From an uncultured Pelagibacterium sp. (GTDB lineage: Bacteria > Pseudomonadota > Alphaproteobacteria > Rhizobiales > Devosiaceae), in the NCBI GenBank assembly GCA_964429025.1, contig CAYSBF010000002.1, positions 12,249 to 76,248 on the forward strand: DNA of 64,000 nt, written 5' to 3'. Position 1 is the stretch's first letter. Every line of letters begins with the position of its first letter. Of this stretch, positions 9,642-25,655 are shown one piece after another. Made by a program: the position numbers and the translations under genes. The notes below the pieces were generated by a model. It saw only the letters and a program-made list of their open reading frames with translations. It did not search any database and had not been told where the DNA came from.

Positions 9642-9670
9642 TTGACGGCGTATAAAATTTGTTCTAACTT
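9642..9670 (+). promoter_or_regulatory. Sigma70-type promoter TTGACG-N17-TAACTT
   Basis: -35 at 9642-9647, 17-nt spacer, -10 at 9665-9670, about 100 bp upstream of ORF 9770. Confidence 0.65.
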
Positions 9671-9675
9671 TGTTC
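9661..9675 (+). promoter_or_regulatory. Alphaproteobacterial LexA (SOS) box
   Basis: Exact GTTC-taacttt-GTTC straddling the -10 element. Confidence 0.8.
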
Positions 9676-9769
9676 TTTCCTGTCGCGCTACCCTGCGCAA
9701 GGCGTGCGGCCTCAGGATGGAGCGATTTGCCGGGGCATGGGCCCGGAACTGGTCCCTGGAGGGGTGGCC

Positions 9770-10114
9770 GTGAATCAGGAAGCGAAATGGGCGCCAGAAA
9801 GCGCCACCGAACCCTTGCGGGTGTTGTGGACCGGGCGATCGGGACGGCGCTATGTGCTGACATCTGTCGAGCTCGAAGGCTTCGCGCTGCGCGAGGGGCA
9901 TCTTTATGCGCTTGCCGCTGGTGGCACCATCCGCTGGGCCGGTGTTTCCGAGGATCTGGTTTCCGACCATGCCAGCCGCACGCGTTTCCGCGCCGCGCTG
10001 GCCGAAGGCGCCCTGGTCCTTACCCTCCCCGCGCCCGCCGATGAGCTGGCGCGCATGACGCTTGTCTGGGACCTCGAGGGTACGCGCGCGCGGCCCAATC
10101 TTACTGCGGCGTGA
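9770..10114 (+). CDS. Hypothetical 114-aa protein, predicted SOS-regulated
   Basis: GGAGG RBS before GTG 9770; own promoter; WTGRSGRRY motif; C-terminal AA. Confidence 0.7.
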   Translation: MNQEAKWAPESATEPLRVLWTGRSGRRYVLTSVELEGFALREGHLYALAAGGTIRWAGVSEDLVSDHASRTRFRAALAEGALVLTLPAPADELARMTLVWDLEGTRARPNLTAA

Positions 10115-20667: not shown

Positions 20668-21225
20668 CTACGCGGCTTCCTCGGCCGCTTCATCGGACTT
20701 GGCGGCCCGGCGCGGGTTCTTTGAAAGGTTCTTGGTGATGAGCTTGACCGCCTCGGTCAGCGTGATCTTGTTGACGGCGGCGATTTCGCGGCTCATGCGG
20801 TCCATGGCCTGCTCGAACAGCTGGCGTTCCGAATAGGACTGCTCGGGCTGGTCCTCGGAGCGGTAGAGATCGCGCACGACCTCGGAAATCGCAATGAGAT
20901 CGCCCGAATTGATCTTTGCCTCATATTCCTGGGCGCGGCGGCTCCACATGGTGCGCTTGACGCGCGCGCGGCCGGTCACGGTCTCCAGCGCCTTGGCAAT
21001 GGTCTCGGGCTCGGCGAGCTTGCGCATGCCGACGGAATTGATCTTGGCAACAGGTACGCGCAGCGTGAGCTTGTCCTGCTCGAAGCTGATGACGAACAGC
21101 TCGAGGCTCAGTCCTGCTACTTCCTGCTCCTCGATTGCATTGATAAGGCCAACACCATGAGCGGGGTAAACGATATACTCGCCGGTCTTGAACCCCGCAC
21201 GCTGCGTGGTCTTTTTAGTTGCCAT
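20668..21225 (-). CDS. carD: CarD/CdnL RNA polymerase-binding transcription factor
   Basis: YIVYPAHGVG, GMRKL, WSRRAQEYEAKINSGD motifs; C-terminal AA. Confidence 0.93.
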   Translation of the reverse strand: MATKKTTQRAGFKTGEYIVYPAHGVGLINAIEEQEVAGLSLELFVISFEQDKLTLRVPVAKINSVGMRKLAEPETIAKALETVTGRARVKRTMWSRRAQEYEAKINSGDLIAISEVVRDLYRSEDQPEQSYSERQLFEQAMDRMSREIAAVNKITLTEAVKLITKNLSKNPRRAAKSDEAAEEAA

Positions 21226-21390
21226 GGGGCTACTCCTGTTGACGCCTTTTATGGACACGTTCGATTAAGGCCGACGCGTCTCACAAATGATACCTGGACA
21301 GTCCGGGATGGGCCGTCGCGCCAATCGCATTGTCCTCCTGGCCGGACCAACAAACCCGGCCAGTTCTGCACCCGTTTGACATTCTGTCAC

Positions 21391-21562: not shown

Positions 21563-21901
21563 CTAGTCACCCTCGCCCGGCGCTTCGGAAAAATACTTCT
21601 CGAACTTGCCCTCGACCCCGTCCATCTCGGCCGCCTCCGGCAGCGGCTCGCGCTTTTCGGTCAGATTGGGCCAGACCGAGGCATATTTGGCGTTCACCTC
21701 GAGCCAGTGATCGAGCCCGGATTCAGTATCGGGCTTGATGGCTTCCGCCGGGCATTCGGGCTCGCATACCCCGCAATCGATGCACTCGTCGGGATGGATG
21801 ACGAGCATGTTCTCGCCCTCATAGAAACAGTCGACCGGGCATACCTCCACGCAGTCGGTATACTTGCACTTGATGCAGTTGTCGGTAACGACATAGGTCA
21901 T
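21563..21901 (-). CDS. fdxA: Ferredoxin FdxA (7Fe type)
   Basis: [17 protein letters not shown] and [12 protein letters not shown] motifs. Confidence 0.95.
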
Positions 21902-22031: not shown

Positions 22032-22328
22032 TCAGCTTTCCGCCTTTGGAACGACGGGCGAAATATCCTCGTATAGTGCTGCGGCAACGGTTGCCGACCC
22101 GCGCCGTTCCGCAATCGCGACGACCTTGAGCACCCTCAGCCGCCCATGGACGAGAATGGTCAGTCCGTCACCCGTTCCTACGCGGTAGTCGGGGCCCGTG
22201 ACACGCTGCCCGTTGACCCGCACCGCGCCGCTCTCGACGAGCTTTTGCGCCAAGGTCCGGCTCTTGGTCACGCGTGCGTGCCATAGCCATTTGTCGAGAC
22301 GCTGCCGGACGGGCGCGGGCGCTGTCAC
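22032..22328 (-). CDS. hslR: S4-domain RNA-binding protein (Hsp15/HslR-like)
   Basis: RLDKWLWHAR..KSRTLA...GAVRVNG, ERRGSA; GTGA overlap with helicase stop. Confidence 0.8.
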   Translation of the reverse strand: MTAPAPVRQRLDKWLWHARVTKSRTLAQKLVESGAVRVNGQRVTGPDYRVGTGDGLTILVHGRLRVLKVVAIAERRGSATVAAALYEDISPVVPKAES

Positions 22329-25171
22329 TGCCGCGTCTTGAGCGCGGCGAGCGCCGCGAACGGGGAGTCGGGGTCGATCGGCTTTTCGCGCCGCTCGGGG
22401 CGCGGGCGGTGATCCTGGCGCTTGTCTTCGCGCGGTCCCTTGTTTGCCTGCTTGCCCTTGTTCTTGAACGGCTTGCCGTGGCCATTGGCGCGCTGGTCGC
22501 CGCCCTCACGGCGCCCCTGCGGACGCGAACCCTTGTTGCGCTCGGGGCGCTTGCCACCGGGGAACCAGACTTCGTCAAATTGCGGCTCCTGGGGCGCGAC
22601 AGTCTCGGCATCCCGGGGCTGAACCGCCTCACCTTCCGGCGCTTCCGCCGTAACGGCTTCCGCCGCTTCAGCCGCCGCGGCCGCTTCGCCGGGAACAGGT
22701 TCGGCACCTTCGACCGCAGGCCCTGCCGGTGGCTTGGGCGTGCGGCGCACCCGATAGCCCAGCGATTTGAGCACCGAGGCAAAATCCTCGCCCGCACAGC
22801 CGAGAAGCGAAGTCATCTCGACCGTGACGCGGAACCCATTGGCTTCTGCCGCGCCATCGGGCGGCGGCGTATCGACGGGCCGGTTGGCGTCGTACGCGAT
22901 AAGCGGGCGGATGATGTCGGCAAGCCGCTCGAGGATATCGACCCGCACGATGCGGCCGCCGGCCACCTTGAACCCCCCGACCTCATAGACCCGTGGGTTA
23001 AAGTTCGGATCGATGGGAAAGGATGTGCGGCCAGAAAGGATGATATGGGGCAATTCGGCAATGCCGGGCTGGCGCACCCCACCATTCTTGAGGCCCCACA
23101 GGATCAGCGCCAACTCGCGCGGCGCAGGCTTTAGGCTGAGCGGCACATAGATGTGGTAGGCGCCGAACTTGACCCCGAGCTTGCGCATCTTGGCGCGCGT
23201 GTCCTGATCGAGGCCCTTCACTTCCTCGGCCACATCGGCGCGGGCAATGATGCCGAGATTTTCGCAAAGCCGATAGGCGAGCCCGCGGGCGGTGCCTTCA
23301 AGCTCGGCCGGCTCCCTGAGCGCAAGGATCTGTTCGAGCTGGGTATTGATATGGTGCCGAAGCCAAAGCGACAGCCGCTCCTCGACCTTTTCCAGATCGG
23401 GCCCCGAAAGGCTTTCATCGGCCAGGATGATGATGCGGGGGCTGAAAAGATCCGGCCCCTCGGCAAGTTCGGCCACCACCTCGCCGCGCCAGCGGATGAC
23501 GCCGTCGGTGCTCAGCACGAACTCCTCATTGGGCGCGCCGCCGAGCCTGTCCGCGCGCTTTGCGATTTCGGGCGCGATTACCGAACCGGCGGTCGAGCGC
23601 AGCGTCTTGGAATCAGTCTCCCCCTCGATGCGCGAGAGCGTGAAGCGGAAACCTTCGATCGTGCCGATGGTGTGCCCCTCGACCGTCACTTCGCCGTTTT
23701 CGGTAATTTGCGGTGATACCATATGTTTGTCTCTTAGATGGCGCATCAGGACCGATGTCCGGCGATCGACGAAACGCTGTATCAGCCTTTCATGCAATGC
23801 GTCGGACAGCGCATCTTCTATCTTGCGGGTTCTTTCGCGCCAGTAATCGGGATCTTCCAGCCAGTGCCTGCGATTGGATATGAACGTCCAGGTCCGGATC
23901 TGGCGGATACGGTTGGACAGGGTGTCGATGTCACCTTCCGTATTCTCGCAGAAGCGGACCTGCTCGGCAATCCAGTCCGCATCGATCTTTCCACCCCGCG
24001 CGAGGTCTGAAAAGACCCTGGCGATGATTTCGCCATGAGCGGCGGGCGAGATGTCGCGGTAATCGGGAATCTGGCAACATTCCCAGGCCAGTTCCACGCC
24101 TTTGGTACCGGTGGCAAGACGCCCCTCCTCGCGCCGCATCAGAAATTCGAGCGCTCGCTGGTCGGTCGCCACCGGCACCCGGGTGAGCGCAGGATGTTCG
24201 GGCGTTTTTTCCAGACTCGCATGCAAGGCTGCGAGCGAGCCGAGATCGAGCACGCGGTTACGCCATTGCAGGACCTTGACCGGCTCGAAATCATGCGCTT
24301 CGAGCCGCTCGATCGTCTCTTCATCGAAGGGTTCGCACCCGCCCGTCACACCGAATGTTCCATCGCGCATATGGCGGCCGGCGCGGCCCGCGATCTGTCC
24401 GATTTCGGCCGGGACCAGCGGGCGGTAAAGCCGTCCGTCAAATTTGGAATCCGAAGCGAAGGCCACATGGGTGACGTCGAGATTGAGCCCCATGCCGATG
24501 GCATCGGTGGCAACGAGAAAATCAACGTCCCCATTCTGGAACAGCTCGACCTGAGCATTGCGCGTGCGCGGGGAGAGCGCGCCCATGACCACCGCAGCGC
24601 CCCCGCGCTCGCGGCGCAGCAATTCGGCAATGGCATAGACCTCACTCGCCGAAAAGGCGACGACCGCGGAACGGCGCGGCAGGCGCGATATGCGTTTCGA
24701 GCCCGCCCAGCTGAGCTTTGAAAAGCGCGGCCGGAACTGGATGTCGGCATGCGGGAGCAGCCTGCGGATGACCGGCTCCATCGTCTGAGCGCCGAGCAGC
24801 AGCGTTTCCGTCATTCCCCGCGCATGAAGAATGCGGTCGGTGAAAACGTGGCCGCGGTCGAAATCGATGGCAGTCTGGATTTCGTCAATGGCAAGGAAAT
24901 CGGTCGTGAGGTCGGACGGCATGGCCTCGACCGTCGCCACCCAATAGCGCGCCGCCTTGGGCACGATCCGCTCCTCGCCGGTCACCAGCGCCACGCTCGC
25001 CTCCCCCGCGCGCTCGACGATCCGGGCATAGACCTCGCGCGCCAGGAGCCTGAGCGGCAGGCCGATCAGCCCCGACCGGTGCGCGAGCATGCGCTCGATC
25101 GCATAGTGTGTCTTGCCGGTATTGGTCGGACCAAGCACGGCTTTGACCGATTGGGAAGGCAGCAGGGACAT
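22325..25171 (-). CDS. Suv3-like SF2 ATP-dependent helicase
   Basis: LGPTNTGKT, DEIQ, TDAIGMGLN, QIAGRAGR motifs as in Suv3; low-complexity charged tail. Start set at ATG 25171. Confidence 0.88.
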   Translation of the reverse strand: MSLLPSQSVKAVLGPTNTGKTHYAIERMLAHRSGLIGLPLRLLAREVYARIVERAGEASVALVTGEERIVPKAARYWVATVEAMPSDLTTDFLAIDEIQTAIDFDRGHVFTDRILHARGMTETLLLGAQTMEPVIRRLLPHADIQFRPRFSKLSWAGSKRISRLPRRSAVVAFSASEVYAIAELLRRERGGAAVVMGALSPRTRNAQVELFQNGDVDFLVATDAIGMGLNLDVTHVAFASDSKFDGRLYRPLVPAEIGQIAGRAGRHMRDGTFGVTGGCEPFDEETIERLEAHDFEPVKVLQWRNRVLDLGSLAALHASLEKTPEHPALTRVPVATDQRALEFLMRREEGRLATGTKGVELAWECCQIPDYRDISPAAHGEIIARVFSDLARGGKIDADWIAEQVRFCENTEGDIDTLSNRIRQIRTWTFISNRRHWLEDPDYWRERTRKIEDALSDALHERLIQRFVDRRTSVLMRHLRDKHMVSPQITENGEVTVEGHTIGTIEGFRFTLSRIEGETDSKTLRSTAGSVIAPEIAKRADRLGGAPNEEFVLSTDGVIRWRGEVVAELAEGPDLFSPRIIILADESLSGPDLEKVEERLSLWLRHHINTQLEQILALREPAELEGTARGLAYRLCENLGIIARADVAEEVKGLDQDTRAKMRKLGVKFGAYHIYVPLSLKPAPRELALILWGLKNGGVRQPGIAELPHIILSGRTSFPIDPNFNPRVYEVGGFKVAGGRIVRVDILERLADIIRPLIAYDANRPVDTPPPDGAAEANGFRVTVEMTSLLGCAGEDFASVLKSLGYRVRRTPKPPAGPAVEGAEPVPGEAAAAAEAAEAVTAEAPEGEAVQPRDAETVAPQEPQFDEVWFPGGKRPERNKGSRPQGRREGGDQRANGHGKPFKNKGKQANKGPREDKRQDHRPRPERREKPIDPDSPFAALAALKTRQ

Positions 25172-25279
25172 GAGGGAAAAAAGCCAGGGCTGATATGAGT
25201 CGGGCGCGCGGCGCACATCCAAAGTGGTGTACCGAAACGGGAAACGCAATGGCGGTTTTGATGTCCGAATTAAGATTTC

Positions 25280-25294
25280 GAACGAACAAGGAAC
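25280..25294 (-). promoter_or_regulatory. Alphaproteobacterial LexA (SOS) box
   Basis: GAAC-gaacaag-GAAC on plus strand (GTTC-N7-GTTC on minus), 109 bp upstream of helicase ATG. Confidence 0.7.
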
Positions 25295-25446
25295 AAACTC
25301 GGTCCGAATCGGGCCGGAATCACGAGTCCGGCTTTGTTCTGCACAGCATGTTGTGGGTATGAACACGCGACTCACACAAGAAGGAACGGCACCGCCGCCA
25401 GAACCTCGCCAATGGCGCTCGAAAGGCCACATCGCGTTCATCTTGG

Positions 25447-25462
25447 TTACCACGAGGTTAAC
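25447..25462. promoter_or_regulatory. CtrA-like site
   Basis: TTAC-cacgagg-TTAAC; 7/8 match to TTAA-N7-TTAA. Confidence 0.4.
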
Positions 25463-25655
25463 CACCCGCATTCACGGCCGAATCTTAAGCACTGATTGAC
25501 GCAGAAAATTTTCACGCTGGCGGCGCTGTAAACGGCAAAAACCCGGCAAACCTGGCACCGGATTCGTGTCCTGTTGGCAAAAAAGATTTTGACCGTTCCG
25601 GAATGGGACAGGCCGGCGCGCCCAGGCACGACGGCAGCCGGCGTGAACAGACCTG

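Follow-up and report, generated by a model that had tools for sequence, protein, structure and literature searches.

A probable LexA-repressed operon of a Suv3-like helicase and an Hsp15-like S4 protein under a methylation-site-rich promoter in Pelagibacterium

In this study we analysed a 64 kb stretch of DNA, called the window below, from the chromosome of a Pelagibacterium (Devosiaceae, Hyphomicrobiales); the nearest named proteins of this host segment come from Pelagibacterium species and are 75-84% identical. Our subject is a pair of genes on the minus strand and the promoter in front of them. The first gene (22325..25171, ATG at 25171 and stop at 22325) encodes a Suv3-like helicase of 948 amino acids (aa), and the second (22032..22328, start GTG at 22328) encodes an Hsp15 (HslR)-like protein of 98 aa, to which Pfam assigns an S4 domain with 56 bits. 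Upstream of the helicase gene, on the same strand, lies a predicted operator for LexA, and the pair is probably an unrecognised operon of the SOS response. The regulation is the part of this proposal that is well supported by comparison, whereas the substrate and the joint action of the two proteins are conjecture.

The predicted operator (GTTCcttgttcGTTC, 25280..25294, minus strand) is an exact GTTC-N7-GTTC direct repeat; from 25294 to 25280 the minus strand reads GTTCCTTGTTCGTTC. GTTC-N7-GTTC is the LexA motif of Alphaproteobacteria (PMC3323433; PMC12700426), and the spacer of the box resembles those of Caulobacter boxes that have been studied by experiment, GTTCttgttatGTTC for example (PMC12700426). 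The helicase ATG lies 109 nucleotides (nt) downstream of the near edge of the box, as a first-pass annotation of this DNA had claimed without stating the strand. We accept the ATG at 25171 as the start because the gene call in P. halotolerans begins at the corresponding codon and because the stretch directly before it shows no protein-level conservation in the alignment of Pelagibacterium genomes. A longer form of 974 aa proposed by the gene caller (P0001) is supported neither by the P. halotolerans gene call nor by the genus alignment.

The box does not stand by itself. It is the last part of a conserved promoter module of about 95 nt (25270..25360, minus strand), which was delimited by nhmmer, alignment and consensus and which nhmmer detects ahead of the helicase gene in about 60 of 82 loci. 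The module begins with a cAcATGcTGt-GAACAAA island, whose GAACAAA is at 25333-25339, and continues with GANTC sites (25324-25328, 25317-21 and 25306-10), a CGATTCG (25305-25311) that fits the GcrA motif YGAKTCK, the LexA box and finally TTAA (25270-25273). Its consensus in the alignment of upstream regions is cATATGTtGccGTGAACaAA - ~20 nt - (GAGTC)aGCGATTCG-4 nt-yGATTCGTTC-N7-GTTCc-N5/6-TTAA. The three to four GANTC sites of the module, which are targets of CcrM, are spaced one helical turn apart. Two of them, 11 bp from each other, have the context CGATTCG/TGATTCG, and YGAKTCK/TGATTCG is the context preferred by GcrA (PMC4647560). The whole intergenic region of about 485 nt between the DUF3108 gene and the helicase gene (25172-25655), which holds the module, is rich in such sites: seven GANTC in 484 nt correspond to 14.5 per kb vs 1.5 per kb in the window, an approximately tenfold enrichment, and 25278-25397 is the 120-nt stretch densest in GANTC of the entire 64 kb. 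LexA boxes that overlap GANTC sites have already been described at SOS promoters (PMC7987155). Judged by these alignments, the promoter is more than a plain SOS promoter, with its predicted box embedded in a conserved cluster of CcrM/GcrA-type sites.

We then looked at how the box fares in relatives, for which the orthologue set comprised 80 loci, one genome per species, together with Pelagibacterium genomes. The locus counts are not phylogenetically independent, and formal p-values overstate the case. Of the 79 loci with enough upstream sequence, 52 have an exact box in the same orientation no more than 400 nt before the helicase, against a background of 0.011 exact boxes per 430 nt in the remainder of the same loci. 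The exact box is present in loci of Mesorhizobium, Brucella/Ochrobactrum and Bradyrhizobium. For an unselected test, the upstream element was located with a model of its left part only, the box excluded. Here GTTC-N7-GTTC recurs in one fixed register, 10 nt after YGATTCG, in 53 of the 63 helicase-proximal modules of Hyphomicrobiales. The spacer sequence differs by lineage (cagactc, tagagtc, gccgcac, cgttttc, cttgttc and others) and its length is always 7. Constant tetramers at a constant spacing around a free spacer form an operator-like pattern. In Pelagibacterium itself TTTGTTC-N7-GTTC is invariant in six of six genomes, vs a mean column identity of 66% in the surrounding non-coding DNA. The first-pass annotation had named orthologous promoters as the place where its LexA box could be checked, and they bear it out.

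Further evidence comes from copies of the module itself. In Rhizobiaceae, Phyllobacteriaceae, Brucella and Hoeflea the module is present in two to four tandem copies on the same strand, about 250 nt apart, upstream of the helicase. The distal copies keep YGATTCGTTC, and eight of nine lack the second GTTC, so that this tetramer is found in 53/63 helicase-proximal modules vs 1/9 distal paralogous copies (Fisher p 3e-5, uncorrected for relatedness). Conversely, both GTTC are kept in several loci in which the GANTC sites overlapping the box have been lost, namely the window itself (WIN), L001, L012, L013, L017, L058 and L070. The lack of the second GTTC in distal copies and the retention of both tetramers without GANTC suggest that selection acts on the direct repeat itself, and that it does not merely follow from the methylation motif. 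Tandem copies were seen in L038 (~1980-2780), L058 (~2240-2880) and L074 (~2330-2700), and also in L005, L035, L046, L049, L052 and L056; several GTTAAY motifs follow each copy.

Transcript evidence was taken from contigs of compost metatranscriptomes that contain the organism of the window. One RNA contig (21812-23848) runs from the 3' part of the helicase gene through the S4 gene into the 5' end of fdxA, the next gene downstream, and a terminator scan found no terminator-like site between the S4 gene and fdxA. Thus, fdxA is at least partly co-transcribed with the helicase-S4 pair. In a second RNA run, a contig over the 5' end of the helicase gene stops at 25268, which is 12 nt downstream of the box, while the metagenome DNA contig passes this position without a break or variant. 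This contig end points to a transcription start a short way 3' of the box; the predicted operator would then cover the -10/spacer region. The depth of the contigs in a compost metatranscriptome is about 16 over the helicase and S4 genes, 26-73 over fdxA and 220-325 over carD, the last gene of the cluster. Since its depth is 10-20 times that of the helicase, carD very likely has a promoter of its own, and the higher depth of both fdxA and carD points to own, stronger promoters despite the read-through.

The arrangement of the genes is itself conserved. The helicase gene, the S4 gene, the predicted LexA box, fdxA and carD are all on the minus strand. First in the order, on the 5' side of the intergenic region, is a DUF3108 gene (26447-25656, minus strand); downstream of the S4 gene come fdxA for a 7Fe ferredoxin (21563..21901; NCBIfam FdxA_Protbact, 173 bits) and, at the end of the conserved cluster, carD/cdnL for an RNA-polymerase-binding factor (20668..21258; Pfam CarD_TRCF_RID and CarD_C). 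The order DUF3108-helicase-S4-fdxA-carD is common to most Hyphomicrobiales loci, and no nuclease gene was seen within the conserved cluster in the orthologous loci. The helicase gene ends in CGG CAG TGA at 22325 and the S4 gene starts with GTG at 22328, so the two share a GTGA (22325..22328), just as first annotated. The S4 N-terminus supports the GTG start: its alignment with E. coli Hsp15 begins at residue 6. Among the orthologues, the S4 gene is 3' of the helicase gene in most loci with enough downstream sequence. In about 47 of 61 orthologous loci, -4 to +25 nt separate the helicase stop from the S4 start, and four-base overlaps (ATGA, GTGA or TTGA) occur in six of these 61. This tight spacing indicates that translational coupling is a conserved trait and supports the view of the helicase and the S4 protein as a translationally coupled pair. 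Together with the bridging RNA contig it also upholds the operon and conserved cluster of the first-pass annotation. In five Bradyrhizobium loci (L042, L057, L061, L062 and L063) the stretch from the helicase stop to the conserved RLDKWLW motif holds no ATG, GTG or TTG in the S4 frame. As a canonical start is absent, the S4 protein must there begin at a non-canonical codon or through reinitiation after the helicase stop.

The helicase is, by its sequence, clearly a Suv3-type superfamily 2 (SF2) helicase in its core (aa 8-298). The motifs LGPTNTGKT (aa 13-21), DEIQ (aa 96-99) and GMGLN (aa 226-230), three signatures already named in the earlier annotation, are invariant in an alignment of 23 family members. 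All 23 match the Pfam families DEXQc_Suv3 (PF22527; 85.9 bits in the Pelagibacterium protein, cut-off 27) and Helicase_C (44.3 bits, cut-off 23.5), which cover only aa 13-268; beyond the core no Pfam family was matched in any of the 23. The best relatives of solved structure are yeast Suv3 (127 bits) and human Suv3 (94 bits) in a search with the single sequence, followed by Ski2 and Mtr4. With the family profile the scores rise to 213 bits for yeast and 168 bits for human Suv3, for the core only, as the similarity ends at aa 298. The fold match appears to reach further. An AlphaFold2 model with a predicted local distance difference test (pLDDT) score of 81.7 has human Suv3 (3rc3) as its top Foldseek match (E 1e-24, 511 columns, TM 0.61 on the target), and these 511 columns exceed the core of about 290 aa and would extend into the helical domain.

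Several parts of the helicase are not shared with mitochondrial Suv3/SUPV3L1, the enzyme of yeast mtEXO and of the human Suv3-PNPase degradosome. The RecA1/RecA2 core and putative helical domain (aa 8-~470, nt ~25150-23762) carry the likeness: the same DExQ-type SF2 motifs, the best sequence and fold match, and a fold match that goes beyond both RecA domains and may take in the helical C-terminal domain. The Suv3 N-terminal domain is not present, since the bacterial protein begins 12 residues before motif I and its matches start at Suv3 residue ~155-180, and there is no match to the Pfam Suv3 C-terminal family. The Pelagibacterium helicase has a family-specific extension of about 350 aa (aa 472-818, nt 23758-22718), for which a separate model (pLDDT 89.6) found no fold match in the PDB (best Foldseek E 0.14), and a disordered basic tail of about 110 residues rich in Arg, Lys and Gln (aa ~819-929). 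It ends in a conserved peptide (DPDSPFAALAALK, aa ~930-948) identified in the family alignment. The peptide follows the pattern DPDSPFAxLxxLK with an invariant F938, is predicted to form a short helix and looks like a docking motif for a partner; tail and peptide together take up 22328-22720. A further difference is that the Pelagibacterium gene stands in an operon with an S4 protein gene under a predicted LexA box.

This helicase family is far from rare. In a library of protein-cluster representatives at 50% identity, 2274 representatives were matched with E<=1e-30, and the cluster of one of them includes a Pelagibacteraceae protein; the whole body of the helicase, some 800 residues, is widely conserved in Alphaproteobacteria. 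A second profile search returned the same Devosiaceae proteins and did not widen the taxonomic breadth. The link to mitochondrial Suv3 that the first-pass annotation had offered holds as kinship but is not new: a Suv3-like helicase of purple bacteria was published in 1999, as cited in PMC10253155 and PMC5818665, and according to the former the kinship with alphaproteobacterial ('Rhodobacter') proteins was noted then. Our literature search found no experimental study of a bacterial Suv3-like helicase.

For the S4 protein the assignment is less close. Its top PDB matches, with 55 bits over residues 6-96 of 133, are chains of E. coli Hsp15 from ribosome complexes, and B. subtilis YabO/RqcP matches it with 27 bits. 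With both it shares the S4 alpha-L RNA-binding domain and an N-terminus of the type RLDKWLW...R. Unlike the 133-residue E. coli Hsp15, however, the 98-residue protein ends at a position equivalent to Hsp15 residue 96 and has no C-terminal tail (~97-133), and it scores 60.3 bits with the NCBIfam Hsp15 equivalog (NF007673), below the cut-off of 148. By these comparisons we call it Hsp15-like and not an Hsp15 equivalent. The genomic setting differs as well, as the Pelagibacterium S4 gene is coupled to a helicase gene. In E. coli, hslR is paired with hslO. No sigma-32 promoter was recognised for the Pelagibacterium operon. Of the two identities first proposed, the helicase is thus Suv3-like and the S4 protein Hsp15-like, but the latter is short and reaches 60 instead of 148 bits.

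Taken together, we favour, as a somewhat probable account, a minus-strand operon of a Suv3-like helicase and an Hsp15-like S4 protein that is repressed by LexA under a methylation-site-rich promoter. The predicted operator would cover the promoter's spacer and -10 region, and LexA would hold the expression of the helicase and the S4 protein at a basal level. Upon DNA damage, RecA-stimulated cleavage of LexA would let both proteins rise together and in a fixed ratio. With less confidence, we suggest that the methylation state of the GANTC sites, as read by GcrA, might add cell-cycle or replication timing. By homology only, the helicase would move 3'->5' and unwind RNA or RNA-DNA duplexes, for instance in damaged or stalled transcripts or in R-loops. 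The S4 protein would bind structured RNA, and by analogy with Hsp15 its target might be 50S subunits that carry peptidyl-tRNA. The SOS-inducible module put forward by the first-pass annotation therefore stands as a strong comparative prediction of LexA control, but at a promoter that also carries conserved CcrM/GcrA-type sites. The joint role in RNA and ribosome quality control that it proposed is a conjecture. SOS membership and the old linkage to carD would fit a role in clearing R-loops or collisions equally well.

Several observations weigh against LexA control of this pair or limit the case for it. In the window alone the box does not exceed chance, with 2 exact matches vs 1.48 expected, so its significance rests on the orthologous promoters. 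In most Devosia, which are the closest relatives outside Pelagibacterium, a single base of the second half is mismatched (GTGC, GTAC or GTTT), and five loci with helicase relatives that are more distant (one from a Pelagibacteraceae genome, the rest without assigned taxonomy) yielded no box. In many lineages YGATTCGTTC includes the first GTTC, and the methylation motif may partly explain the conservation of this tetramer. The distance between the box and the start codon is 150-390 nt in many genera. A promoter scan found no sigma-70 consensus, the transcription start is read from the end of a single assembled contig, and the operon is expressed in compost metatranscriptomes without known DNA damage. 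We found no data on LexA binding to, or induction of, the helicase gene in the literature for any organism. The published SOS gene list of Caulobacter, from a 2025 paper, contains no Suv3-like helicase; the only helicases in it are an Lhr-type one and uvrD. The pairing of the two proteins also has its exceptions. In a Pelagibacteraceae (SAR11-type) metagenome-assembled genome the position of the S4 gene is taken by a TerB-domain gene (L083 6494-6925), and two other distant lineages (L084 and L085) have no recognisable S4 gene.

The pairing of the helicase and S4 genes is a feature of most Hyphomicrobiales loci, in which the genes are coupled, but not of these three distant lineages, where the S4 gene is replaced or unrecognisable. 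In all three, distant alphaproteobacteria included, the helicase stays linked to fdxA and carD, and in two further distant loci an S4 gene directly follows the helicase. From these gene orders the S4 protein appears to be no obligatory partner of the helicase and dispensable in distant lineages. In the same Pelagibacteraceae locus (L083) a TGATTCG precedes AATC-N7-GTTC at the usual register. We did not locate the row of the helicase orthologue in the part covered of the tables on CcrM depletion in Agrobacterium; carD is not adjacent there.

Some of these points raise the question whether LexA is involved at all. The GTTC repeats might simply belong to a CcrM/GcrA cell-cycle module, with GAnTCGTTC recurring one helical turn apart, and the operon might provide a housekeeping RNA helicase that serves RNA decay or the making of ribosomes, along with a ribosome-associated S4 protein. 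The expression without known damage and the absence from the Caulobacter SOS list would agree with this, as would the tenfold GANTC enrichment, the YGATTCGTTC kept in the extra tandem copies and the GANTC that directly precedes each GTTC in many lineages (GATTCGTTC...GACTCGTTC). We nevertheless consider it unlikely. A methylation module would leave unexplained why the second GTTC is a feature of proximal and not of distal copies, and why both GTTC persist where the overlapping GANTC is gone, as in the window. The spacer, always 7 long and variable in sequence, is what is expected of a LexA operator, and an overlap of GANTC and LexA sites is known from genuine SOS promoters (PMC7987155). A different objection accepts the SOS regulation and concerns the substrate: the helicase could act on DNA, at R-loops, stalled forks or transcription-replication collisions, perhaps with CarD, and the S4 protein could be a nucleic-acid-binding accessory and no ribosome rescue factor. 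SOS regulons consist largely of genes for DNA repair and tolerance, the linkage of the helicase with fdxA and carD is older and less variable than that with the S4 gene, and the S4 protein lacks the Hsp15 tail and falls below the Hsp15 equivalog cut-off. On the other hand, the closest relatives of known role (Suv3, Ski2 and Mtr4) are RNA-decay helicases, the top matches of the S4 protein are Hsp15 chains from ribosome complexes, and carD is transcribed far more strongly and likely independently. Neither substrate is directly favoured, and we regard a DNA-directed helicase as possible, if rather doubtful.

We also asked whether the upstream element could be a structured RNA leader or a small RNA gene, with the GTTC repeats as part of its sequence. 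Its conservation across families is unusually high for non-coding DNA, and it occurs in tandem copies in some genera. In a Brucella-like organism the depth of RNA-labelled contigs is higher over the module than over the helicase gene. No consensus RNA structure emerged for either strand of the module (RNAalifold 0 and -1.6 kcal/mol) and no conserved fold for the leader in the genus alignment (-0.4 kcal/mol). Rfam gave no family in the window at gathering thresholds, nor in the upstream region and four related loci under permissive settings, even at E<=1. We therefore read the module as protein-binding DNA. In the organism of the window, moreover, no RNA contig covers the module upstream of 25268. 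An RNA element is on this evidence very improbable, and for this organism we dropped the reading as a riboswitch or small RNA because neither the module nor the leader has a consensus structure. The depth in the Brucella-like case is a messy hint: in RNA-Seq-labelled insect gut runs, a diverged Brucella/Ochrobactrum-like strain (L074 2370-2700) shows 15-58 over the module region vs 3-5 over the helicase gene. This excess could reflect abundant small intergenic transcripts, repeated sequence or DNA carry-over.

Other conserved or repeated motifs were seen around the promoter. The helicase leader contains a block of about 33 nt (CCATTGCGTTTCCCGTTTCGGTACACCACTTTGG, 25217..25250, minus strand; also given as CCATTGCSTTTCCCGTTTYGRTACACCACYTT) that is nearly invariant in six Pelagibacterium while its flanks diverge. 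It has no match to the sigma-70 consensus. We considered it as a sigma-32-type or extended -10 promoter and dropped this reading, as spacing and consensus would not fit across families. A related motif, TGTGATACAG, follows the box by 37-58 nt in Xanthobacteraceae and Bradyrhizobium. On the other side, 170-190 nt upstream of the box, lie GGTTAACC and GGTAACC (25440-25470, minus strand), and P. halotolerans has a similar pair of GGTTAACC and GGCAACC. The motifs at 25440-25470 resemble CtrA/SciP-type TTAAC half-sites. Elsewhere in the window there is one other exact GTTC-N7-GTTC (tGTTCtaactttGTTCtt; 9661-9675, plus strand). It is intergenic and sits just upstream of a small open reading frame (9704-10114, plus strand) of at most 136 aa without a Pfam match, which may be another LexA-controlled gene.

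How does this promoter compare with known ones? With the alphaproteobacterial SOS promoters of Caulobacter imuA, ruvC and ccna_01391 it shares GTTC-N7-GTTC with a T-rich spacer and the overlap with GANTC. Unlike in these, the predicted operator forms the 3' end of a larger module that is also copied without it, and the genes, a Suv3-like helicase and an S4 protein, are not in the SOS gene sets compared. With GcrA/CcrM promoters (Caulobacter mipZ and ctrA P1, Agrobacterium repABC and ddl) it has in common the clustered GANTC, two of them in YGAKTCK/TGATTCG context. It differs from them by the predicted LexA operator in fixed register, a combination not described for this operon in the literature that we found. 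The helicase family, its kinship with Suv3, the Hsp15-like family, the LexA motif and the GANTC/GcrA promoters are already known. New, as far as we found, are the placing of this operon, by prediction, in the LexA regulon throughout Hyphomicrobiales, where absence refers to the SOS gene sets compared and two key regulon surveys lie outside this comparison, and the composite module in fixed register with its operator-less tandem copies.

The helicase is among the most widespread proteins of Alphaproteobacteria and the closest bacterial relative of a helicase that is essential for mitochondrial RNA turnover. The conserved, predicted LexA operator names a condition, DNA damage, under which to search for a phenotype, and also a co-expressed partner, the Hsp15-like protein. 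In the widest form of the proposal, which we hold to be improbable, the alphaproteobacterial counterpart of Suv3 would belong to an unrecognised arm of the damage response, in which a promoter with LexA and GcrA/CcrM sites couples damage and replication signals to an RNA or R-loop helicase and a ribosome-rescue factor; the SOS response would then act on transcripts and stalled ribosomes too. GcrA-type sites that keep a fixed register to a LexA box would also lend themselves well as a model of how an epigenetic and a damage signal are integrated at one promoter. If LexA control is true, the SOS regulon of the Hyphomicrobiales, which include rhizobia, Brucella, Bradyrhizobium and Methylobacterium, gains an RNA- or R-loop-directed member.

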